From a virus, in IMG/VR virus record IMGVR_UViG_3300048996_000163, positions 68,718 through 132,717 of that record: a stretch of 64,000 nucleotides of DNA, one strand, 5' to 3'. The translations under genes were made by a program, and so were the position numbers. Position 1 is the stretch's first letter, and every line of letters starts with the position of its first letter. The notes beneath the pieces are model-generated. The model was not told the DNA's origin. It did not search any database and saw only the letters and a program-made list of their open reading frames with translations. This document shows, in pieces, positions 960 through 58,846 of this stretch.

Positions 960-3290
960 TCACGCGTTCACCTGCTCGGCCAAGTCCAGCGCAGCGATGA
1001 CGCCGGCCTCGGTGAGGCTGTGTCGTCGGTCTGCTGACACCACGAAGTCCCGGTCGCGGAGCTGCTTCAACGCCCCCCGCACTGTCGCCGTCGAATACGA
1101 CATGCCGGCGTCCGTCAAGGCACCGTCGAGCTCATCCATCGTCAACGCCCGCCGCCCGTCCGTCTCAGCCCTGGCGAGGACCAGTAGCACCGCATCGACG
1201 GACCGTTGCGGCGTGACCGACTCCGCAGACTTCGCCTCCGGCGCCCACGACTCCCCCGCCGCCGCAGCCTTCACCCACTGCGCGTACGCGGGACCGAACG
1301 TGTCGAGGGTGACCTGCGGCAGGACGGCCGGGTAGCCGATCGGCTGGTCGTTGCTGTCACGCACCCAGTCGTAGTAGTCCGGTTCCCACTCGGTGCGTGC
1401 GAGCATCGCCTTCGGCTGCAGCCCACTGAGGATGTACGCCATGCCGGGGATCTGCGGGATGCTGCGCGGGTCGGCAGGGAGCCGCCCGTTGAACGCGGTG
1501 GGGCCGGACAGGCTGTTCGCGGTCCGGCCGACCCATACGAGCCCACCGGTGAGAACATCCCGCAACGCCATGCTGCCACCCAGGTCCGTCAGCAGCGGCG
1601 TGTGCGTGGCGAGTCTCAGCTGCCCGCCGCACTTCCGCCACATGCGACCGGCTTTCGTGACGAGCGTCGCGAACGCTCGGTTCGACAGGTAGTCGTGCGC
1701 CTCGTCGATCGTCAGCGACAGGATCGGGCCGTCGATGAGCGGGTTCCACCACTTGCGGCCCTTCCGCTTCCGGCCGCGCTCGTCGACGTACTCGACGCGG
1801 GCGAGGTAGCGGTTGCGGCGCAACATCTCCTCGGTGAGGCACAGCACGAGCAGGATCGCCTCTTCGAGGGATGTCGCGACGGGCGCGGCGAGGTCGTCGA
1901 GGAACGGCGCGAACGACTGGCCCTGCTGGGGGTCGATGAGGAAGTTCGCGACGAGACCGTGCGCCCTGCCCTGTTCGTCGCGGTAGTGCGCCCACCGGTC
2001 GATCGTGAACAGCGCATTGAGGAACTCCGATTTTCCTGAGCCGGTCGTGCCGAACGCAGCCACGTGGGGGACGCCCCAGCCGGGCCGGTAGATCTCGTAG
2101 AACGCCTGCTCGCCGTCGGCGTACATGGCGATCGGCGCCCGGCCGGTCTTGACGTCGATGGAGTCAGGGCCGGACCAGCGGACCGTGTCCTTGATCGGGC
2201 TGGACCGCTGCGCGAGGATCGTCGACTGGTTCTCGTCGTCCGGGTCGGGCAGGACGGTGATCATCGACTTTTTCATGCTGTACGCCGATGCGATCTTCCC
2301 GACGGCGGCAGCGAACTGGTCCGACTCGTACGCGCCGATCGGGCCGACGACCGTCGCACCCCAGCCACCGACCACCCGATGCCAGTCCTCGAGGTGAGTC
2401 CCGGCGAGCTTCCCGTTCGCGGCGGCCCTGACCGACGTCCCGTCCGGATGAACACCGATCACCTGGTCTTTGCGGACGGCGAGGACGGTCCTCCAGATCC
2501 GCTCGACCTCGACCCGGCCCGGGTCCAGCGCGACAACCTCCTGTGGCTCCTCGACCTCGACCTCGACGTCGATGGCGGGCTGCGGCCGGTGCCGGCGGAC
2601 ACGCTCCGCCCGCCACCACGACGCTGCCGGGACCAGCCACGCCGCGACCAGTGCGGCGAACGCGACCCGGCCGGTCCACGTCGACGGGTCCACGCCCAGG
2701 CCCGCGGCGGCCGCGAGTAGCGTCGCGACCGTCACGCCGGCGTAGCCGTACAGGCGCGCCGACCGGGCGATCGCAGCGCGGCGGCGCTTGTCACCGCCAG
2801 GGTCCGTGTCGTCGATGCGACCCTTTCGCGCCGCCTTCGACGTCAGGTATTTCGCGGCGGCCGTCTTCGCCAGCCATCCGGCGGCGGGCACCGCCAGCGC
2901 CAGCGGCAGGAACGGCACCTCGGCCGCATCGACCGCGACACACACGCCACCGGCAGCGACCAGCGCCCACACAGGCCGCAGCGGGCGCTCCGCCGCGATC
3001 CGAAGGTCACGCCACGGCAGCAGCGGAGGCCGCTTCACGTCCATCGGCACCATGCGTTTCCCGCACCGCTCGCACGCTGGCGGGGTCTTCATCGTGGACC
3101 AGCCCGCCGGGCCGTGCTGACGGCACCGGTACTGGACACCGACGATCGTCCCCGACTGGTCGACAGGCACCTCCGCCGCAGCGCGACGCAGGACACCGGA
3201 CGTGTCGTAGTAGGTGCGGGACTTGCGTTGTGCACCCAGCGGCCCACCTGGCACGGCGGGTCCGCCGGGCGGCGACACCATCGGATGCAT
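960..3290 (-). CDS. traB: FtsK/SpoIIIE-type conjugative DNA translocase (TraB of actinomycete ICEs/plasmids)
   Basis: N-terminal TM helices, Walker A AFGTTGSGKS, LIDPQQG, Walker B LTIDEAH, C-terminal wHTH-like region. Confidence 0.85.
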   Translation of the reverse strand: MHPMVSPPGGPAVPGGPLGAQRKSRTYYDTSGVLRRAAAEVPVDQSGTIVGVQYRCRQHGPAGWSTMKTPPACERCGKRMVPMDVKRPPLLPWRDLRIAAERPLRPVWALVAAGGVCVAVDAAEVPFLPLALAVPAAGWLAKTAAAKYLTSKAARKGRIDDTDPGGDKRRRAAIARSARLYGYAGVTVATLLAAAAGLGVDPSTWTGRVAFAALVAAWLVPAASWWRAERVRRHRPQPAIDVEVEVEEPQEVVALDPGRVEVERIWRTVLAVRKDQVIGVHPDGTSVRAAANGKLAGTHLEDWHRVVGGWGATVVGPIGAYESDQFAAAVGKIASAYSMKKSMITVLPDPDDENQSTILAQRSSPIKDTVRWSGPDSIDVKTGRAPIAMYADGEQAFYEIYRPGWGVPHVAAFGTTGSGKSEFLNALFTIDRWAHYRDEQGRAHGLVANFLIDPQQGQSFAPFLDDLAAPVATSLEEAILLVLCLTEEMLRRNRYLARVEYVDERGRKRKGRKWWNPLIDGPILSLTIDEAHDYLSNRAFATLVTKAGRMWRKCGGQLRLATHTPLLTDLGGSMALRDVLTGGLVWVGRTANSLSGPTAFNGRLPADPRSIPQIPGMAYILSGLQPKAMLARTEWEPDYYDWVRDSNDQPIGYPAVLPQVTLDTFGPAYAQWVKAAAAGESWAPEAKSAESVTPQRSVDAVLLVLARAETDGRRALTMDELDGALTDAGMSYSTATVRGALKQLRDRDFVVSADRRHSLTEAGVIAALDLAEQVNA

Positions 3291-15494: not shown

Positions 15495-15671
15495 ATGGCC
15501 GACCAGCAGCGCGACACCCAGGGTGACGTCGTCGACGAGCGCGGCGTGCTCATCACCGCCGCCGGCCGCAAGCGGATGCGGGCGAAGATGGACGAGGTCA
15601 TGAACCGTTGGACCCCCGAAGAGCGGGAACAGCGCCGCCTGGCCGCCCTCGCGCGTATCACCGCGGCGTGA
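15495..15671 (+). CDS. putative antitoxin (58 aa)
   Basis: Read by hand: MADQQRDTQG...WTPEEREQRR; GTGA-coupled to the PIN-like gene. Confidence 0.55.
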   Translation: MADQQRDTQGDVVDERGVLITAAGRKRMRAKMDEVMNRWTPEEREQRRLAALARITAA

Positions 15672-16051
15672 CCGAAGCGCAGTTCACGCTCGACACCACA
15701 GCGGTCCTCGCGTACGTCGCCGGGTCGCACGGCCTCGGTGAGCTCCTCGGTGAGGTCGCCGACGAGAAAGCCCGGTTCGCGGTGCCCGCCATCTGCCTCG
15801 TCGAGGCTGCGACGATGCTCGAGGATGTCGCCTGGCCGATGCTGGACCTGCTCGCCGGGCACCCGAACGCGGTGCTCGTGTCGCTGGACGGGACGCAGTG
15901 GCGGAGTCATGCCGCGTCGGCGCTCGTGTACGGCGGGGTCGGGTCGGGTGCGGCGGCGCTGCTTTTCGTGCAGGAACGCGTCTGGTATGTGGCGACCTGC
16001 GACCCGGCGATCTACGGGGATGGGATCGACACGGTCGCGATCGAGGACTGA
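15668..16051 (+). CDS. PIN-like (VapC-fold) protein
   Basis: FTLDTTAV, PAICLVEA, VATCDP. Confidence 0.6.
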   Translation: MTEAQFTLDTTAVLAYVAGSHGLGELLGEVADEKARFAVPAICLVEAATMLEDVAWPMLDLLAGHPNAVLVSLDGTQWRSHAASALVYGGVGSGAAALLFVQERVWYVATCDPAIYGDGIDTVAIED

Positions 16052-16341
16052 TCTCGCACTTCGGGCACCTCGACCCCGTCCACGTCGCCCCGGGCCAGCT
16101 GCCCGTACACCGCCTCAGACCACGCTCCGAGCGCCCGCCGATGCTCCTTGCACCCGTGGGTGCCCTCGTACCACAGGACGACAAGCAGTTCGTGCCGGGT
16201 GAGGTCGTAGTCGGCGCAGACCGCCGCCTCATCCCGTTCCGCGAGGTACAGGCCGGCGATCGCGTCGGTGGAGATGCCGCGCAGGTGCGGGCCGCCGAAG
16301 CGCATGCCCGGTTCTGTGCGGATGACGGGGCGGTTGGTCAC
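16012..16341 (-). CDS. DUF433 domain protein
   Basis: IRTEPGMRFGGPHLRGI...VCADYDLTR. Confidence 0.65.
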   Translation of the reverse strand: MTNRPVIRTEPGMRFGGPHLRGISTDAIAGLYLAERDEAAVCADYDLTRHELLVVLWYEGTHGCKEHRRALGAWSEAVYGQLARGDVDGVEVPEVRDQSSIATVSIPSP

Positions 16342-16354
16342 AGCTACCAGTGTC

Positions 16355-16873
16355 CTACCGCAGGGTGCCGCGCAGTTCGGCCGGCACGTGCTCCTTCGAG
16401 CAGTAGCCGATGCCACCCGCGACGAGAGTCATGGCCTCAACGCAGCCGCGGTGGGCGCACCGTTCGGTGGCCGGCGCTGGGTAGCTGATCGCGAGCCCCG
16501 GAACCTCCATGGCGACCCGCGCGACGACCGCCCGATGCCACGACGCCGGCCACGGCTGGTCGGGATGAGCCGCGTGGTATTCGTCGTCGTTGCGGTAGGT
16601 GAGAACCGTGGCGTCGACGGGCGCGGCGTTGAGCTTCTCGACGATGCCGTCGACGAACTCTGCGGTCCGCTGCTCGAGGTCTTCGAGTTCGAGGCGGACA
16701 CCGTCGGGGATCGGGTAGCGGCCTTGTTCCCAGCTGCGGACGGTGCGCGGGTTGATGCCGAGGTGTCCGGCGAGCCAGTCACCGGTCAGGCCGAGGTGTT
16801 CGCGGACGACGCGGAACTCGGCGTCGGTCATGCGTTCGTCGTCGGGCATGCCGGGCGGGTCGGTGTATTCCAT
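16355..16873 (-). CDS. DUF1870 (Aca2/YdiL-like) HTH protein
   Basis: MTDAEFRVVREHLGLTGDWLAGHLGINPRTVRSWEQGRYPIPDGV...WHRAVVARV. Confidence 0.75.
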   Translation of the reverse strand: MEYTDPPGMPDDERMTDAEFRVVREHLGLTGDWLAGHLGINPRTVRSWEQGRYPIPDGVRLELEDLEQRTAEFVDGIVEKLNAAPVDATVLTYRNDDEYHAAHPDQPWPASWHRAVVARVAMEVPGLAISYPAPATERCAHRGCVEAMTLVAGGIGYCSKEHVPAELRGTLR

Positions 16874-16931
16874 GGTGGGGCTCCGGAAACGGTGCGACCC
16901 CGGCACGTGGCCGGGGTCGTGGTGGGTGAGG

Positions 16932-17147
16932 TCAGTTGGCGTGGCGCTCGACGATGGTCCAGAACTCGTCGTCGCTGACGGTCTGCTCGAACCCGGCGGT
17001 GTTGAGGAGTTCCTGGCCTTTGTCGTTGGTGTCGACGCGGTACTCGAATGCGTCGACGAAGATAGCTTCGACGTTGTAGTCCGCGGGCTCGTCGAGGGCG
17101 GGGAGGACGGCCTGCTCGATGGCGTCTTCGCGGGTGGTGTAGCGCAT
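16932..17147 (-). CDS. small acidic protein, first gene of the DUF1870 operon
   Basis: 71 aa, 17 D/E vs 5 K/R; GAAGGA SD. Confidence 0.75.
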   Translation of the reverse strand: MRYTTREDAIEQAVLPALDEPADYNVEAIFVDAFEYRVDTNDKGQELLNTAGFEQTVSDDEFWTIVERHAN

Positions 17148-17199
17148 GTCCGGTTCCTTCCGGCTGAGTCTGGGGCCTGCTCCCCTGACCAACACCTGA

Positions 17200-17228
17200 A
17201 GACTAGCGCCCTAAATTAGGGTGCACAA
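17200..17228 (-). promoter_or_regulatory. sigmaA-type promoter with operator between -35 and -10
   Basis: TTGTGC-17 bp-TAGTCT; IR GCGCCCTAA-A-TTAGGGTGC at 17206-17224. Confidence 0.7.
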
Positions 17229-17233
17229 GGCTG

Positions 17234-17917
17234 TCACTCGGACGAGGTTGCTTCCCGCCGCCATTCCCGCTCCTCCCGCCGCCGCTGCGACTTCTTGCCC
17301 CGCGCCGTCGACGTGCAGTCCGGCCCGGCCGGCCCGTGGCAGTAAGGGCACCACTCCCGCTGGCACACGCCGAGCATCCGGGCCACGTCAGCCTGCCTCC
17401 ACCCGGTGCCCGCACTGCTCCTGCATCGGCGACCCGGCCCACTGCCGGTACAGCCACTCCCGGTCAAGCTTCCCGTTGACGTGCGTGGAGGACTTCATGC
17501 CCTCTTCCCATTCGCGCAGGAGCGGTTCAAGGACGCCCTGCCGGTCGAGGTACAGCAGCGCGCCGCACGGGGCGCAGCAGGACGGGCAGCAGCCCCAGAT
17601 GTCGTCGCCCTCATCGCGTGGCTGGAAGTCCGACGCGTACCAGACCTGCGACAGGGCGTGGTGGGCGAGCATCGCGTACGCCTCGACGCGCGACGTCGGC
17701 GACTGCGGCAGGGTGAGGGTCACGTCGTCTCCCCCGCCGCCGCCCGCACCGCCGCGATGAACTCCTCGACCTTGTCCGGCGGCAGGTATCCGTCGTACGG
17801 TCCGACGCTGATCGCGACCCACCCGTCGGGGGCGGACTCAACAGTGATCGTCTCGCGCTGCTCGCCGAGTGGCCAGCCGCCCTCAGGCTCGATCGGGTAC
17901 TGCCACAGCTCCGACAT
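17234..17917 (-). CDS. three small hypothetical ORFs (17234-17386, 17388-17723 Cys-rich, 17720-17917)
   Basis: Closely packed or overlapping ORFs with SDs. Confidence 0.5.
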
Positions 17918-18425: not shown

Positions 18426-20009
18426 CTAGAAAGGCCAGGCGCCGTCGATCCCGCGTTCGATCAGCGGAATCATGCGGAGTCCTGCGTCGGTGAGCCCGCC
18501 GAACGCCCACCGGTTCCGGTCCGACGGCGCGTGCCCCATCCGGTAGCCGGCGAGGTTCCAGGTGAACATCGGCACCGAAGCCGGGATCACCGCGCCTGGG
18601 TCGCCGTCGTACGAGGTCTGCTCGTCGGTGAGGATCACTACCCGGTCGTGCTTCGCGAAATGCGCCCGGACCGCGGTCGCCGTGTACGTGCCACCGCCAC
18701 GGAAGTGGCCTTCCTGCCGCCAGCGCTCCAGCGATCGCAGCAGCGACTCGCCGCGGTGCAGGTTGAACACGGACGTGCGTCCGTCGTAGGCGATGACGTC
18801 GGCGTGCGCGCACCGCTGGGCGAGCGCCACACCGAAGATCGTCGCAGCGTCCCACCGGCGCAGGGTGCCGTCCTTGGAGAACACGTCGTTCATCGACCCG
18901 GACACGTCGACCATGACGAGGGTGCGGCCCGGCAACTCGGCGATGTTCGCGAGGCAGTGCCCAAGCGCCTGCTCCAGCGGGTACGACCAGCGAAGCGACG
19001 GCGCCGCCCGGTACGCGGACAGGAACCGCATCGGCAGCTGCCTGGACTTCGCGACCTGCTCCGGGTCGGCGATGCGCGCGGCAACGGTCGCGGCGACCTC
19101 GTCGGAGACGCCGGCCTCGTCGAAGTTGCGCAGGTTCCGCAGGAGCGCCATGTACCCCATCGACGGGATCAGCGAGGTCCACAGCTTCGCCTTGTCGACC
19201 TTCGACCCGGCGAGCGACAGCACGTCCTCCCACGTCATGCCCGCCTCGCGGAGCCGGTCGGCGTCGAGCAGGACGGACGGCTCCCGCTCGGCCTGGAGGC
19301 GCAGCAGCGAGTTCGCGGCTAGCATCGGCAGTGACGTCGGGAACTCCACCTCGCGGCCGTGACGGCGGTCGAGCGCCTGCTTGAACAGGTCACCCTGCCA
19401 TGCGAGTTCCGCAGTCGGGTGGACGAGGTCGAGCACGTCACCGAACCGGAAGCCCTTCGACGCGGTGTCGTACTTGAGCAGGTTCCGCTCGGTGTACAGC
19501 CGCTGCACCCCGTCGGCGATGCCCCGCTTCACCGGCTTCGGCACCTTCCGGCCGTACCGCGACAGCCAGTAGGCGAGCATCTCGCCCGGCTCGTCGGCGC
19601 GCTGCAGCACGGACGCGACCACGGCCCGGTTCTTCGCGTGGTCGGGGAGTGCCTGGTCGCCGCCGCCGAGGGTGAGCCGTCCGCGGACGTACTCGGCGGC
19701 GCCGACGATCGCGGCGGTCCGCATGTTCGCCGACCCGCGTAGCCAGCCGAGGAACCGGGCCGCCCAGCCGGGGTCCTCGACGGCGAGCCGCTGGACGAGC
19801 TCGACGAAACGGGAGTCGCGGTCGCCGGACTTCTCGTAGAAGGTGTCCTCGCCGACCATGTTGGTCACGGCCAGGAGAAAAAGTTCGGACTTCACGTCCC
19901 GCGTGTAGCCGGCGGCACCCTCGTGGGTCACGCCGGTCGGGCGCTGCTCGGTCGCGATGGGGCCGGTTCCGGATGCTGCACGGACACCGACCTGGTTGAA
20001 CTTGGACAT
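18426..20009 (-). CDS. rsr: Ro60/TROVE domain RNA-binding protein with vWA domain
   Basis: ELFLLAV...DTFYE, RADEPGE, KPVKRG, LLKY, YMALLRNLRNF, MIDAS DVSGSM, ILTDEQ. Confidence 0.93.
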   Translation of the reverse strand: MSKFNQVGVRAASGTGPIATEQRPTGVTHEGAAGYTRDVKSELFLLAVTNMVGEDTFYEKSGDRDSRFVELVQRLAVEDPGWAARFLGWLRGSANMRTAAIVGAAEYVRGRLTLGGGDQALPDHAKNRAVVASVLQRADEPGEMLAYWLSRYGRKVPKPVKRGIADGVQRLYTERNLLKYDTASKGFRFGDVLDLVHPTAELAWQGDLFKQALDRRHGREVEFPTSLPMLAANSLLRLQAEREPSVLLDADRLREAGMTWEDVLSLAGSKVDKAKLWTSLIPSMGYMALLRNLRNFDEAGVSDEVAATVAARIADPEQVAKSRQLPMRFLSAYRAAPSLRWSYPLEQALGHCLANIAELPGRTLVMVDVSGSMNDVFSKDGTLRRWDAATIFGVALAQRCAHADVIAYDGRTSVFNLHRGESLLRSLERWRQEGHFRGGGTYTATAVRAHFAKHDRVVILTDEQTSYDGDPGAVIPASVPMFTWNLAGYRMGHAPSDRNRWAFGGLTDAGLRMIPLIERGIDGAWPF

Positions 20010-20043
20010 GAGAAAAGGCCCCTTCCGCACCGGGAGGAGCCTG

Positions 20044-32115: not shown

Positions 32116-32646
32116 ATGACCAACGAGACCCTGCACGCCAACCCCTGGGTGTCCCTGCACGTCGTGCGCAGGCCCGAGGCGGGCATCAACGGCTACGTCT
32201 ACTCCCACGAGACCCGGTGCCAGGGCCGGATCGTGGCCGTCCTGCCGTTCCGCGACACTACCGTCGGTCGTGAGTGGCTGGTCAAGTCGGAGGTGACGCC
32301 GTGCTGGTCGCTGGAGCCGTCCCTGTCGGCGATCACCGGCGGCTACGACGGCGGCGACATCGAAGACGACGCCGTGCACGAGATGGCCGAGGAGACCGGC
32401 TACGCCATCACCAGGGCGGACCTGGTCGAGTTGGGCGAGTCGTACGCGTCGAAGTCCACGGACACGGTCTACAGCCTGTTCACGGTCGACCTGACGGGGC
32501 GGTCGCCGGGCGTGGCGACCGGCGACGGCAGCCGGCTGGAGGCAGAGAGCACCGCCGTGTGGGTGTCGGAGCGGGAGCTGGCCGACGTCCGCGACCCGCA
32601 GGTGTCGGTCATGCTCGTCCGGGCGAAGCTGGCGGTGTCCGCATGA
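32116..32646 (+). CDS. NUDIX hydrolase
   Basis: GGYDGGDIEDDAVHEMAEETGY, a variant Nudix box. Confidence 0.75.
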   Translation: MTNETLHANPWVSLHVVRRPEAGINGYVYSHETRCQGRIVAVLPFRDTTVGREWLVKSEVTPCWSLEPSLSAITGGYDGGDIEDDAVHEMAEETGYAITRADLVELGESYASKSTDTVYSLFTVDLTGRSPGVATGDGSRLEAESTAVWVSERELADVRDPQVSVMLVRAKLAVSA

Positions 32647-33269
32647 CCACCGAGATCCTCGCCGACAAGATCGTCGACCTGGCCCGCCTGTCGCTGCTGT
32701 TCGGCCGAGTCAACCGGATCACGTTCCACGAGGACGGCAAGCGACCCGAGTCCGACACCGACCACACGGTGATGCTCGGGCTGGCCGCCTCCGCCCTCGC
32801 GGCGGAGCAGGGCGACCTCGACGTCGGGCTCGTCGCCCAGTTCGCGCTCGTCCACGACCTCGTGGAGGCGTACGCCGGCGACATGCCGACACTGCGGGCG
32901 CTGTCGTCGGACCGGAAGGCGGAGAAGCGGTCCCGCGAGCACGCCGCCTTCGAACGGATCATGCGGGAGTTCGGGCTGGACCTGCCGTGGATCGACCAGA
33001 CGATCGCCGAGTACGAGCGGCAGCAGTGGCGGGAGGCGCGGTTCGTGCGCGCCCTGGACAAGCTGCTGCCGAAGCTGACGCACCTGCTCAACGGCGGGGT
33101 GACGTTGCGCGCTGAGGGCATGGGTGCCGACGAGTTGGCCGGCCGGTACGTGGCGCAGCGGCAGGAACTGCTGGAGTACGCGGCGGACTTCCCGGTGCTG
33201 ATGGACCTGCACGCCGAACTCGTCGGGCGAGTGCTGGCCGCGTACGGGCGGGCGGAGGTCGCAGCGTGA
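32643..33269 (+). CDS. HD-domain phosphohydrolase (HD_3, 5'-deoxynucleotidase-like)
   Basis: ESDTDHT, ALVHDLVEAYAGD, EARFVRALDK. Confidence 0.85.
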   Translation: MTTEILADKIVDLARLSLLFGRVNRITFHEDGKRPESDTDHTVMLGLAASALAAEQGDLDVGLVAQFALVHDLVEAYAGDMPTLRALSSDRKAEKRSREHAAFERIMREFGLDLPWIDQTIAEYERQQWREARFVRALDKLLPKLTHLLNGGVTLRAEGMGADELAGRYVAQRQELLEYAADFPVLMDLHAELVGRVLAAYGRAEVAA

Positions 33270-52237: not shown

Positions 52238-52873
52238 TCACGCCACCGTGCCTAGCACCGGCAGCGCCGGGATCGTCCCGGCGAGGAATCCGCCCGCGTT
52301 CGTCGTGAAGTGCGGCGCCGCCCGCGTCTCCCACCACGACCGCATCGCCACCACCGTCTCCTCGACCTGGGTCCGCTTGTGCGTGAACGTCACCTCACGC
52401 TCCCCCGACGCCCGCACGACGACCCGTCCGCGCTTGCAGCCGTCCGGGTAGTCGTTCCAGTTGATGCCCTTCTCCGCCCACAGCAGTTCCTGCGCCTGCG
52501 CCGAGTTGACCCCGTGCAGCCGCTTGTGCGGGAACACCGCCTGCGCCGCCATCGAGATCGAGTTGCGGACCGCGTCGCGCTGCCGCCAGATCATGTAGTT
52601 CGCGACCTCGTTCGGGTCGGAGATCGTGAACACCCGCGCGTCGAACATCGCCAGCCTGCCAGGACGACGGGCGTTCAGAGTCGCGGTCGCCACCGACGCC
52701 GCGACGGAACACCACTTCTGCACCTCCGCCGCCTCGACCACGTCGGCCAGCTGGTCGTTGGTCATGTCGGCGAGCAGGCGCTCCGCCACGTACGGGTCAA
52801 GCTTCAGCGTGCTGAGGACGTGGGCAACCGCGAGGCGGACAGCGTCGTACTTCTCGCGCGTTCGCGGCGTCAT
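52238..52873 (-). pseudogene. N-terminally truncated tRNA(His) guanylyltransferase (Thg1-like) chimera
   Basis: VQKWCSVAAS, FDARVF, YMIWRQRDAVRNSI, INWNDYP..KRG present; catalytic DG..FH and QSDEIS motifs absent. Confidence 0.75.
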
Positions 52874-55254
52874 GGTGCCCCCTCCGCCGCGTCGTTCAGC
52901 TCTTCCTTCGCCAGCGCGATGTAGTTCCGCGCCCGGCGCAGAGCGGCGCCCCGCTTGCCGGTCGGCTGATCCCGCACGTCGGAGCGCAGCCAGTCCTGCG
53001 CGTCGCCGAGCAGCTTGTACGCCTCTGAGCGGACCGTCTCGAATCGGGGCAGCATCAGCGCTCCACATCCACGTCGGCGTCGGGCTGGAACGCCAGCCGG
53101 TACCGCAGATTCGGCGTTGACCCGAGCCACTGGAAGTCGGTCGCGCCCGTCACCTCGGGCAGGCGGTCCGGGTCGCCGAAGCTGCCCGGCTTGGGCACCT
53201 CGACGTCGACGAAGATGCGGTCCCACTTCGGGTCATCGGGCACGAGGTCGCCCCACGGCGCGTCGGAGACGACGAGCGTGCCGATCGCGGTGGGGATCCG
53301 GTCGCCGATGGTCAGGTCTGCGGGCTTCACCTGGTCACCTCAAATGTCCCGTCGGGCGTACGGATGCCCGCACCGAAGGTGATTCCCTCCGGGTTCCGCC
53401 AGACGGCGATACGCCCCCTGACGTTCAGCATGAACCGGATCTCCCGGCGGTTGGCGATCTCCTCAGCAACCTCGTCCAGATCGGCATCCTTGTCCACCTC
53501 CCAGTCCCAGGCTCGGGTCGAATGGATCGGCGGGAGCGTCGTCCAGTCCGTCTCATTACGGCTGAGGTCGATCGTCTGGACTGCGTAGGTGACGTACATG
53601 CTGGTCTCCTTAACGCCGCGAACGGCAGGTCGATGGTCGGGTGGGTGTGGTCGTCGCCGAACATGGCGTCGCCGGCGGAGTCGTCAGCGACGTGAACGCC
53701 CTCGCACCGACCGAGGCCACGCAGGCGGCGGAGGGCGGCGAGCCGGATGTGGGCGAGGTGTAGGTCGTGGGCGCGGGCGGCGTCGACGTACCGGCCGAGC
53801 TCGACCACGGCGGCCTCTTCGCGGGTCACGACGCACCGCCGAAGTCGGCGAGGTTGACCGTCTCGTACAGCTGCACGCCGCTGCCCTCGTCGACGTAGAC
53901 CCGGACCTGGGTCAGGTCCTTGCGGAGCATCCCGAGCCGGTAGTCGTCGGCCATCTGCTGCACGTAGCGGTACGCGGCGGGCTTCGACTCGTGGCGCTTG
54001 TACGCAGAGCCGGGCGTGGTCCGTGTCGACCACTTCTTGCGCGGGCTGGCCATCAGGCACCCACCTCCCGCAGGTGCTCCTCGACGGCGACCTCGGCGTC
54101 CTCGCGCTCCTCGAACCCGGTGTCGTCCCAGCCGCAGGAGCAGCCGGCGTCGAACGTCTGGTCGTCCTGCTCGTCGACGGTGGCGACGTGGTCGAACTCG
54201 CTCATCACTCCCCCGTCCCGACGCGCAGCACGATCGCGTGCTCGCCCCGAACGAGCTGGTCGATGTGCTCGTCGCGGATCGGCCCGCTGACGTGCGTCGC
54301 GGCCCACGGCGAGAAGACCTCCTCGGAGTCCTCCTCCTTGAAGAACGCGCCGCCGATGGTGGCGACGACCGACCCGACGGGCAAGGTCGCGGCGGCGGGC
54401 CGGTCGATGGCCCACTTGACGGCGTCGATCGCGGTGCGCAGGTCGCAGCCCGTCTTGTCGCGGACGATCTTCGTGGCGCGGATGACGCTGACCTGCTCGT
54501 CGTGGGTCGCGGATTCGCTGGCGACGGCGGCGATGGCAGCGGTGCGGATCTCGTCCATCAGGCACCGCCGACGGAGCGCAGGACGACAGTCGCGAGAGCG
54601 CGCAGGTCATCGACGGTCAATGGATCGGGGTGGCCCTCCCACGCCTCGTCCAGGAGCGCCCGGACAGCGTTGTCGATGACGCGGTCGGCGGTCAGGGCAG
54701 CGGTAGCCACCTCGGCGATCTGCCCCGCGCCCATCGTGTGGTTGCCGTCGGCGACGCGGATCGCGTTGGCGATGACGTCGATCGGGTTGGTCATCAGGAC
54801 TCCTCGGAGCGGACGAAGCGCCGCACGAACACGTCAGCGCTGATGCGGGTCGTACGGGCGGGCGGGTAGTCCATCGCGGTCCAGCCGGTCCGGGCGCGCA
54901 CCTGCCAGGAGCTGAAGCCCTCGACGAACCCGTCCGGGTCGGAGGCCGTGACGGCGACGAGACGGCGGTAGCGGGTCTTGTCCCGCCACTCGCGGCGGTC
55001 GGTCATCGGGCGCTGGTCGATCCAGGTCTGGCCCGGCTGCGGGGTGGCGGTCATTGGGCCATCTCGCGGACCGGGCCGTAGTCAACGACGAGGCGCCGCC
55101 AGTCCGCGATCTCCATGCCGTCGGCGCTGGTCCACTTGCCGCGTCGGCCGCGATTACCCCGGGTCCACACCTCGCCTTCGGTGTCGACAACCTTTTCCAG
55201 GTCGTCTGGGGCGTCCGGGACGCCGAACGTGCGGACGTTGACCTCGTCACTCAT
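52870..55254 (-). CDS. array of small coupled hypothetical ORFs (52870-53055, 53055-53330, 53327-53599, 53826-54053, 54053-54205, 54205-54558, 54558-54794, 54794-55054, 55051-55254)
   Basis: TGATG/ATGA overlaps. Confidence 0.6.
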
Positions 55255-56930: not shown

Positions 56931-58415
56931 TCATTTGCCGTGCAGGTACTGAAAGCGGAACGCCGAGAGTCGTTCGGCCTCCGGTTCGCGGTAGTACCGT
57001 GCGCGCCGGACCGAGAAGGACCGCATCACCGACCTGAGCCCCCGGTTGCGTTCGGGGTCAGTCAAGTCCGGCCAGTGGTCCAGCAACTGCTCCACGAGGA
57101 CGACCACCTCCCCCGGCCTCGGGGCCTCGGCGAGTCCGCGGGCCGTGTCCAGCTGCGCGACCTGACTGGCCTCGTCGTCGGTGAACTGGGCCATCGCCCG
57201 GCCGTACGCGTCGTCACTGACCGCCCCGCGAGCCCACGCCTCGGCGAGCTTCCCCATCGCCTCGCGCGTCCTCTCCAGTTCACGCTCCACCCTCGGGACG
57301 CTCGCCCACGCGGTCGACCGTTTCGCCTCCCGTGCCTCCACCGCGGCCGGGTTGCCCCGCAGGTCGGCGCCGTGGAGGCGGACCTCGTCGAGGACGGCCG
57401 CCTCAACGGGGTCATAGAGGGGGGTGCCGACGCCGCCGCAGGCCGCCGTCTGCTTCTTGCGGTTGCAGAACAGGCGCCGCACCCTGTCGGGGTTCTCCTT
57501 CGAGTGCATGACCTGGACCCGGTAGCCGCAGTGCAGGCAGACACCGAGGCCGGTCAGCGAGTACGCCGGTTCGAGGTGCCGTGGTGGGGTCTGCTGGTCG
57601 GCACCGAGGCGTTTCTGCGTCAGGCGCCACGTGTCGGGGGTGACGAGCGGCGGGTGCTGGTCGGGGATCTCGATGTAGCCGCCGGTGGACGAGTTCAGGA
57701 CGACGCGGCCGATGTAGACGGGGTTGCGGAGCATCTCCTTGACGTTGCGCCGGTCGATGGGTTTGCCGCGGGCGAGCGCGAACGCCGCAACGATCTCGGA
57801 TACGGGTGCGCCGGCCGCGTAGCTGTCGAACATGGCGGTGATGGCGGGGCCGAGGATGGGGTCGGGGATGCGGGTTCCGTCCGGGCCTGCGATGTATCCC
57901 TGGCTGACGGGGCCGTGGATCTGGCCGCGGCGTGCCCGGCGTTCGATGATCCGTGCCCAGCTCTCGCCGATCTGGTTGCCCTGGAGTTCGGCCATGTTGA
58001 GCCACATGCCGATCATGAACTGGTCTTCGGGTGTGTCGCCGATCTTTTCCGTGGCGGAGACGATGGTGACACCGCGTTCGCGGAGCCAGCGGATGAAGGA
58101 GAGGGATTCGGCGAGGTTCCGGCCGACGCGGGACAGGGCGTAGACGGCGATGACGTCGACCTGGCGTGCTTCGACCATGGCGCGGATCCGGTCGAGGCCC
58201 TTGCGGTTGAAGCTTCTGCCCGAGACGTCGATGTCGTCGTCGATGACCTCGACCTCTTGGAGGCCCTGGCGTTGGACGAGGTCACGCATGCTGGCGACCT
58301 GGACGTCCGGTGAGTGGAAGGCGTCGCCGCCACGGCCCATGAGTGCGCTGACGCGGACGTAGAGGACGGTCCGGCCGGCACTGGGGACGGATTTGAGTCG
58401 CCTACGTGGGGGCAT
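56931..58415 (-). CDS. int: large serine recombinase (integrase)
   Basis: YVRVS catalytic motif, SRVGRN, LRNPVYIG, HPPLV, CxxCG zinc ribbon, coiled coil. Confidence 0.92.
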   Translation of the reverse strand: MPPRRRLKSVPSAGRTVLYVRVSALMGRGGDAFHSPDVQVASMRDLVQRQGLQEVEVIDDDIDVSGRSFNRKGLDRIRAMVEARQVDVIAVYALSRVGRNLAESLSFIRWLRERGVTIVSATEKIGDTPEDQFMIGMWLNMAELQGNQIGESWARIIERRARRGQIHGPVSQGYIAGPDGTRIPDPILGPAITAMFDSYAAGAPVSEIVAAFALARGKPIDRRNVKEMLRNPVYIGRVVLNSSTGGYIEIPDQHPPLVTPDTWRLTQKRLGADQQTPPRHLEPAYSLTGLGVCLHCGYRVQVMHSKENPDRVRRLFCNRKKQTAACGGVGTPLYDPVEAAVLDEVRLHGADLRGNPAAVEAREAKRSTAWASVPRVERELERTREAMGKLAEAWARGAVSDDAYGRAMAQFTDDEASQVAQLDTARGLAEAPRPGEVVVLVEQLLDHWPDLTDPERNRGLRSVMRSFSVRRARYYREPEAERLSAFRFQYLHGK

Positions 58416-58846
58416 CAGCGGATGCTTCGCAGGGGGTGGGGCCGCGGTTGCGACCGGGGTGGGTCGGCGTGGTTCATGCCGTCGATGATGCCGTCGCTGT
58501 TGCGCTGGTCGCCGTACGTCTCGATGTCCTGGCGGAGCCTGTCGATGCATCCGCAGATGCGTTCGGTGCCGCTGACGATGGCGAAGAGGACCCAGGCGGT
58601 GCCGGCGGCGGCGCGGAGTGCCGGTGCGGCGTCTGGCCAGTGGTCGAGGGTGGCGATGATGGCGGTTGCGGTGATGATTGCGGCGCCCACAAGGGAGGCG
58701 GTGCGAAGCGGGGTCACTGCCTGCTGCCCTCCGGAGGTCAGCGCGAGGCGGCGGCTCCGCCTCGCGTGTACGGCTGACCCCCGAAACGCGTGGTCCGATG
58801 TCGTCTTAACGCGATTCCACCTGTTCCAGCAACGGAACATTGTCAT
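58415..58846 (-). CDS. two-TM membrane protein coupled to int (start uncertain)
   Basis: Two hydrophobic helices; TGATG overlap. Confidence 0.6.
   Translation of the reverse strand: MTMFRCWNRWNRVKTTSDHAFRGSAVHARRSRRLALTSGGQQAVTPLRTASLVGAAIITATAIIATLDHWPDAAPALRAAAGTAWVLFAIVSGTERICGCIDRLRQDIETYGDQRNSDGIIDGMNHADPPRSQPRPHPLRSIR

Follow-up and report, generated by a model that had tools for sequence, protein, structure and literature searches.

An acidic cargo gene in an exchangeable slot before an Aca2-type repressor gene: a probable self-repressed operon in a large phage genome

The 64,000-nucleotide stretch of DNA analyzed here (the window) comprises bases 68718–132717 of a 132,717-bp virus record (IMG/VR record IMGVR_UViG_3300048996_000163), which has direct terminal repeats and is rated a complete phage genome; all coordinates given below are window positions. 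Our subject is a locus on the minus strand in which a gene for a small, very acidic protein, termed here the cargo, precedes a gene for a helix-turn-helix (HTH) repressor of the Aca2/YdiL family. Read along that strand, the locus consists of a promoter-like site, a palindrome, a leader of ~45 nt, the cargo gene, a hairpin rich in guanine and cytosine (GC) and the HTH gene, with the following features:

17223 to 17228, minus strand: −35-like hexamer, its position before the palindrome kept in related promoters
17206 to 17224, no strand assigned: candidate 19-nt palindromic operator filling the promoter spacer, its arms complementary at 8 of 9 positions and conserved
17200 to 17205, minus strand: −10-like hexamer immediately 3′ of the palindrome, position conserved
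17148 to 17193, minus strand: 5′ leader with two hairpins, drawn from an alignment of 43 leaders, its 5′ end a deduced position
17167 to 17190, minus strand: leader hairpin 1, a 9-pair stem with one mismatch
17150 to 17163, minus strand: leader hairpin 2, a 4-pair stem whose loop contains ribosome-binding purines
16932 to 17147, minus strand: cargo gene, encoding a very acidic protein of 71 residues from a family without a name, with 33 homologues
16895 to 16919, minus strand: GC-rich hairpin between the cargo and HTH genes, with a perfect 10-bp stem and a 5-nt loop
16355 to 16873, minus strand: Aca2/YdiL-family HTH repressor gene, encoding 172 residues and identified by Pfam, PDB sequence matches and predicted fold

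The cargo and HTH genes lie on the same strand behind one promoter with a gap of 58 nt between them, an order that is repeated in related loci, and in a sequence of 69.5% GC both open reading frames (ORFs) have the codon-position GC pattern of genuine genes. A sequence-only reading of this DNA that preceded our analysis had described the second gene as DUF1870-like, a description that was borne out when the protein was searched against Pfam, where Aca2_YdiL (PF08965, DUF1870) scored 29.8 bits against a cut-off of 23.8 (30.5 bits in the genome-wide search). In agreement with this, the four best matches among PDB sequences were Aca2 entries (E ~1e-6), covering residues 15–107 and both domains. 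An AlphaFold2 model of the protein (predicted local distance difference test [pLDDT] score of 86.7) contained the two-domain fold, an N-terminal HTH followed by the C-terminal Aca2 dimerization domain, and all 10 of its Foldseek matches at E ≤ 0.001 were Aca2, YdiL or SO3848, with template modeling (TM) scores by target length of 0.74–0.78 and root-mean-square deviations of 2.6–3.0 Å over ~120 columns for the Aca2 chains. These three tests (Pfam, PDB sequence matches and fold) place the HTH protein in the Aca2/YdiL (DUF1870) family. Its N-terminus is the one conserved among homologues, and its Arg43, invariant in 29 homologues, aligns, by a numbering offset that we deduced, with Arg30 of Aca2, whose mutation abolished repression according to excerpts of PMC6765145.

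The HTH family is large in actinomycetes: of 765 candidates, 661 matched at E ≤ 0.001, and its members are mostly 132–146 residues long and ~70–78% identical over the first 130 residues. Residues ~136–172 of the window protein (coded by 16355–16465, minus strand) extend its C-terminus and include three Cys and two His; this extension is common to only one of 28 aligned homologues, was modeled poorly (pLDDT 55–66) and may be a metal-binding tail. A predicted complex of HTH residues 1–135 with the cargo, run without controls, scored 0.00.

A gene-neighborhood survey, which the sequence-only reading had suggested, was carried out by scans from the HTH gene that combined a pattern with tblastn; actinomycete genomes yielded 32 loci and IMG/VR contigs another 30. 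Among the genera represented were Streptomyces, Actinoplanes, Streptosporangium, Amycolatopsis, Micromonospora and Lentzea. Three partial HTH matches (L040, L062 and L070) and seven loci duplicated across the two collections (L045, L048, L051, L054, L058, L059 and L063) were left out, so that the final set comprised 52 loci and the window, from actinomycete genomes, phage and plasmid-like contigs. Across this set the frame of promoter palindrome, two-hairpin leader and HTH gene was conserved, and the gene between leader and HTH varied: close HTH relatives (~60–80% identity) carried unrelated types of cargo. A profile of the window's cargo family matched strongly upstream of the HTH gene in only two of 59 loci and weakly in nine further rows. 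Comparison of this profile with those of the other types found one type of 60 residues to be related (94% probability), a 110-residue type to have only a terminal helix in common (24%) and a 100-residue type to be unrelated (0.2%). Clustering by BLAST added six groups, namely a Cys-containing 170-residue type, a basic 170-residue type and four singletons; this clustering was single-linkage and without composition correction, and several types were joined via fused proteins. Most of the slot's contents were very acidic: in 40 of the 53 ORFs directly upstream of the HTH gene, the last 60 residues carried a net charge of at most −6. Ten cargo representatives of other types had no match above cut-off in Pfam or NCBIfam. 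In two loci (L061, 2389–3384, and L064, 2328–3020) an acidic cargo domain was fused in frame to an Aca2-type HTH. A swapped acidic gene upstream of the HTH gene is the guilt-by-association pattern of loci in which anti-CRISPR (acr) genes are paired with aca genes.

Close HTH relatives were also found on Streptomyces plasmids of 84–120 kb, and many carriers were whole contigs of 60–130 kb, which suggests that they are phage-plasmid-like elements. By a raw count read off our tables, in ~17 of the 30 IMG/VR loci no more than 10 kb separated the cassette from the end of a contig or prophage. In addition, ~80-kb Prescottella equi plasmids, which account for 28 of the 45 plasmid records with a match, carry genes of the DUF1870 family ~41–42% identical to the HTH of the window.

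The same cassette was recognized in a cultured phage, Streptomyces phage Gilgamesh (MN234216, 129 kb, host S. lividans), as genes 86–87, whose annotations go no further than "hypothetical protein" and "HTH DNA-binding protein". The Gilgamesh HTH is 60.8% identical to that of the window, and a palindrome, a 107-codon upstream gene and an intergenic hairpin are visible, with a cargo of a sequence type other than that in the window.

The inverted repeat that the sequence-only reading had placed between −35 and −10 elements was found to be present there on the minus strand. The two hexamers are 17 nt apart, the palindrome has its arms at 17206–17214 and 17216–17224, and this layout is conserved. 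A scan of 15900–17900 for Escherichia coli-type promoters returned no site, and a scan for E. coli-type promoters and terminators gave none on the minus strand at the locus; we call a promoter here because the same layout is conserved in related loci and because of a comparison of the hexamers with what we take to be the Streptomyces-type consensus. Of 38 related promoters, 30 had a palindrome at this position with perfect arms of at least 7 bp, compared with 20 of 1900 shuffled sequences, and the remaining eight promoters had imperfect palindromes.

The palindromes fell into operator classes that differ symmetrically, with variant bases altered in the two arms alike, and that go along with particular residues of the HTH protein. 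Proteins of the majority class have His47 and Lys52. The window and one other locus (L046) form a rare class with outer half-site bases altered in both arms, and have Ser47 and Arg52; a third outer-base variant (L030) is accompanied by Arg47 and Gly52. Six loci with inner half-site bases altered in both arms all have Pro-Glu replacing Gly31-Asp32, a replacement seen in none of the loci of other operator classes. Symmetric changes of this kind are the expectation for a dimer on two half-sites and, as the loci are interrelated, we treat them as supportive of such binding, not as proof. Backed by this covariation among loci that are not independent, we infer that the HTH protein binds the palindrome and represses the promoter. 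The covariation further predicts the specificity residues of this branch of Aca2 proteins.

The leader, which was absent from the sequence-only reading, is most likely the RNA element that matters most at this locus. Among 43 aligned copies, 14 columns were invariant, 89.2% of the alignment cells were paired and six of the 13 pairs had changed on both sides; none of 500 shuffles reached the observed values, and slid controls reached at most 56%. RNAalifold independently predicted the same two hairpins. A covariance model built on the leader scored the window at 54.9 bits and phage Gilgamesh at 37.9 bits, and placed a leader upstream of the HTH gene on the same strand in 47 of the 52 related loci as well as in the window, including 10 of 15 loci outside the set from which the model was built. 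Excerpts of a 2026 paper (PMC13551039) describe two Aca2 RNA motifs that were defined in 2024 (Birkholz et al., Nature), one of which was named after Actinobacteria ("actino"); the window leader is very probably this published motif. No further copies of the leader were found by the covariance model across the whole phage genome, and a pattern search of the 132.7-kb genome found the palindrome to be unique there. Copies of this kind would have suggested a regulon. Five loci have an extra leader copy between two operon genes. In these loci (L015, L028, L042, L049 and L055) the promoter and leader, ~1.0–1.2 kb upstream of the HTH gene, are followed by a basic protein of 167–176 residues, and the second two-hairpin copy precedes the acidic gene; this basic protein also takes first place in L053 and L056.

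The 10-bp hairpin between the two genes, which the sequence-only reading had noted, is present with a perfect stem, and its folding energy of −24.9 kcal/mol (z −3.0) was equaled by only one of 200 shuffles. A perfect stem of at least 7 bp within the 90 nt before the HTH start occurred in 38 of 53 loci, compared with 74 of 1060 shuffles (7%) and six of 52 coding windows. Only the position of this hairpin is conserved and its sequence is variable. It looks like an attenuator or stabilizer rather than a site for protein binding, and on this point the former interpretation is to be corrected.

The acidity of the cargo, with 17 Asp/Glu against five Lys/Arg as had been counted previously, stands out in the setting of its own genome: at a net charge of −0.17 per residue it ranks near the acidic extreme of the 202 proteins predicted from the element, for which the median is −0.009 and the 5th percentile −0.109. 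Its 33 homologues are 51–75% identical to it and support the ATG at 17147 as the conserved start. A search of 1.84 billion proteins placed 398 representative clusters in the family at E ≤ 0.001, mostly of 60–100 residues. The protein was modeled by AlphaFold2 as a small alpha/beta domain with high confidence (pLDDT 92.9). No match to it was found in Pfam, PHROG or NCBIfam, its profile had no match at E ≤ 10 among PDB sequences, Foldseek found nothing in the PDB at E ≤ 0.001, and the best of 48,161 chains compared by VIA-align reached a Z of 4.5, in the range of common arrangements. In BFVD the model matched only uncharacterized phage proteins (top TM 0.80; seven with a probability of at least 0.97), and its matches in the protein atlas were all to actinomycete and phage clusters without a name. 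Searches by tblastn of cultured phages and of plasmids gave no match to the cargo, a pattern scan of genome contigs gave 38 pattern matches of which none was confirmed, and ten fused or longer relatives had no family in Pfam. Ocr and ArdA are acidic DNA-mimic proteins that counter restriction and are small, expressed early and found on phages and plasmids. The cargo is likewise small and strongly acidic, but it has no similarity to them in sequence or fold (best VIA-align Z 4.5).

Relatives of the cargo were located on six IMG/VR contigs, in two of which an Aca2-type gene follows; in the other four there is no Aca2-type gene within 4 kb. One of the two, a phage contig of 59% GC (L005, 3992–4957), has two tandem cargo-like genes before the Aca2-type gene, with a different inverted repeat between the promoter hexamers.

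With respect to its phage setting, the other half of the genome codes for a portal protein (E 1.6e-103), a head protease, homologues of major head proteins, a DnaB-like helicase and an HNH endonuclease, and the proteins of the window include an FtsK/SpoIIIE-like protein, two AAA_25 proteins, a large serine recombinase and a TROVE/Ro-like protein. Given that such proteins are encoded, the source element is a large, probably temperate, phage of a high-GC soil actinomycete.

The layout described above invites comparison with the acrIF8–aca2 operon of Pectobacterium phage ZF40 (PDB 7b5j, 7vjo–7vjq, 8w35), whose repressor belongs to the same family. According to excerpts of PMC6765145 and PMC13551039, ZF40 Aca2 represses its own operon via an inverted repeat in the promoter and, as a dimer, additionally binds a pair of hairpins in the 5′ untranslated region and blocks translation. 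The general layout, as excerpted from PMC13551039, has a DNA motif in the promoter, an RNA motif directly after the start site and extra RNA motifs between genes. Within what these excerpts cover, in both operons the repressor gene immediately follows a small gene, the promoter contains an inverted repeat and the 5′ untranslated region has two hairpins. The locus fits the published layout point by point, and hence its control system is of a kind that was already known; what gives the locus its value is the catalog of cargo types and the covariation of operator and protein. The differences are that the two HTH proteins are only ~28% identical, that the sequence and spacing of the operator differ, that the host belongs to another phylum, that the window HTH has ~37 extra, poorly modeled residues at its C-terminus, that the window cargo shows no similarity to AcrIF8 or another named Acr, and that a GC-rich hairpin of conserved position lies here between the cargo and aca2 genes. 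The window locus, unlike that of ZF40, is known from sequence and computation alone. The two-domain fold is also shared with YdiL (PDB 1s4k) and SO3848 (PDB 2ox6). Excerpts of PMC8434428 describe both of the latter as chromosomal, outside prophages and of unassigned function, and SO3848 as having extra C-terminal helices; going by these excerpts, an extra C-terminal part is common to SO3848 and the window protein, whereas the window gene differs from both in lying in a phage behind a swapped cargo.

The membership of the repressor in its family, the conservation and covariation of operator and leader, and the swapping of the cargo are supported directly by the analyses reported here. In terms of regulatory design alone, we consider it very likely that the locus is a self-repressed operon of the Aca2 type. 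For the reading as a whole, which sees in the locus a self-repressing accessory operon of the acr–aca2 type in a temperate actinomycete phage, including an anti-defense cargo, we judge the chances to be about even. That the cargo counters some host defense is a candidate role to which we give equal weight for and against; in its favor are the design of the operon, the swapping in the slot, the acidic character of the cargo and its occurrence in a phage.

In the scheme that we propose, phage DNA would enter a cell free of repressor, host RNA polymerase would fire the promoter and a burst of the acidic 71-residue cargo would follow. The GC-rich hairpin after the cargo gene would lower or delay downstream expression, such that the Aca2-type protein would accumulate more slowly. 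Its dimer would then bind the palindrome in the promoter spacer and turn transcription off and, by analogy with ZF40 Aca2, the protein would also bind the two leader hairpins, one of which bears the ribosome-binding site, and block translation. The cargo meanwhile would act on a host component, most likely a defense system. Several elements of this scheme are inferred: where transcription starts, that the repressor binds DNA and RNA, what the hairpin does and how the cargo acts.

Several findings weigh against an anti-defense operon of this kind. Each promoter hexamer has only three of six matches to the E. coli consensus and is weak by that standard; the window leader on its own folds no better than its shuffles (z −1.5, 14 of 200); the leader is nearly invariant across operator classes, with no covariation between repressor and RNA; and in Pfam, PHROG, NCBIfam and the PDB the cargo matches no known anti-defense or Acr family. 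Moreover, the protein that stands first behind the leader in seven loci is the basic one of ~170 residues, not an acidic one, and Aca2-like proteins also occur outside anti-CRISPR contexts, with YdiL and SO3848 as examples in excerpts of PMC8434428. The last two of these points, together with the location of the Gilgamesh cassette after the small terminase gene, speak for a rival reading in which the cassette would be a built-in regulatory or host-takeover unit of the phage unrelated to defense, and the HTH protein would simply time the expression of an acidic protein. This acidic protein would modulate a DNA-binding protein of phage or host, for example as an anti-repressor or by inhibiting a protein of the nucleoid or of transcription. 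The basic protein that shares the leader looks like a DNA-binding protein. We regard such a unit as possible but rather unlikely, because HTH relatives that are ~60–80% identical have unrelated cargos, which fits an accessory slot better than a fixed partner, and because relatives of the cargo have no Aca2-type gene within 4 kb in four of the six viral loci.

The specific proposal of the sequence-only reading gives the cargo a dedicated anti-CRISPR role, directed for instance at type I-E systems, which are common in actinomycetes. This proposal shares with an anti-defense role of broader scope the operon design of acr–aca2 loci (in excerpts of PMC6765145 and PMC13551039) and a cargo that is small, acidic and swapped. 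Its operon component gained in strength from the Aca2 family assignment, the conserved palindrome and hairpins with their compensatory changes, and the swapping of the cargo. The dedicated anti-CRISPR component did not fare as well: Cas1 was detected in only eight of 27 genomes carrying the cassette (these are drafts, in which absence is unproven), the cargo has no similarity to a solved or named Acr in the PDB, Pfam and NCBIfam searches, and excerpts of PMC13551039 report that Aca1/Aca2 are predicted to control 450 genes in RefSeq and IMG/VR, of which fewer than half have an assigned function. As such, we consider a dedicated anti-CRISPR improbable, and because of the low count of Cas1 we prefer to describe the cargo as anti-defense in general rather than as anti-CRISPR. 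A toxin–antitoxin or exclusion module, with the HTH protein as an antitoxin resembling HigA or MqsA and the upstream gene as the toxin, appears very improbable. The order of a small gene followed by an HTH gene, with the operator between the hexamers, does resemble higBA and mqsRA loci, and there were weak matches of the HTH to HigA-2 (E 0.024) and to the MqsA and Y4mF models (far under their cut-offs), but over its full length the protein matches Aca2, not HigA, in fold and sequence. The cargo, for its part, is very acidic, matches no toxin family in Pfam or NCBIfam, is fused in frame to the HTH in two loci, and has relatives that stand without an Aca2-type gene in the same four viral loci. 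A new kind of toxin would likewise lack a match to these families.

If the anti-defense reading is followed further, the slot between leader and aca2 gene could be a site at which genes of unrelated acidic families are swapped, making up a first anti-defense arsenal for Streptomyces and its relatives in widespread temperate actinomycete phages and phage-plasmid-like elements, with the 71-residue family as an inhibitor of new fold, possibly a DNA mimic, directed at a nucleic-acid-targeting defense such as restriction-modification, a BREX/Pgl-type system or type I CRISPR-Cas. We offer this joint proposal tentatively and think it, taken together, more doubtful than the reading from which it extends. 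We know of no characterized anti-defense protein from phages of Streptomyces and related actinomycetes, and a literature search pairing Aca2 or anti-CRISPR with Streptomyces gave nothing relevant. The importance of the conserved promoter–leader–aca2 frame lies in pointing to a slot from which candidate proteins can be collected: the window family alone has 398 representative clusters, and several other acidic types at least share the slot. Since Gilgamesh provides a cultured phage with the cassette and, in S. lividans, a laboratory host, the idea is directly testable in a bench model.

With regard to the surroundings of the operon, one further gene possibly belongs to it, judged by its spacing alone:

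16012 to 16341, minus strand: possible third operon gene, encoding 109 residues and beginning 14 nt past the HTH stop

This ORF has a weak match to DUF433 (E 0.0048, under the Pfam cut-off). On the plus strand at 15495–16051, two small ORFs of 58 and 147 codons, neither with a match in Pfam, converge on the end of the operon and overlap the 109-residue ORF by ~40 nt. On the other side, 1.3 kb upstream of the operon on the same strand (18426–20030, minus), lies the gene for a TROVE/Ro60-like protein of 534 residues with a vWA-like C-terminal part. No Y RNA or any Rfam family above threshold was found across the window or at the locus. A similar protein is encoded near a relative of the cargo in L003. 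Other notable genes of the window are the following:

960 to 3290, minus strand: FtsK/SpoIIIE-like ATPase
32274 to 33269, plus strand: HD-domain protein
52238 to 53068, minus strand: protein with a Thg1 C-terminal domain
56931 to 58550, minus strand: large serine recombinase

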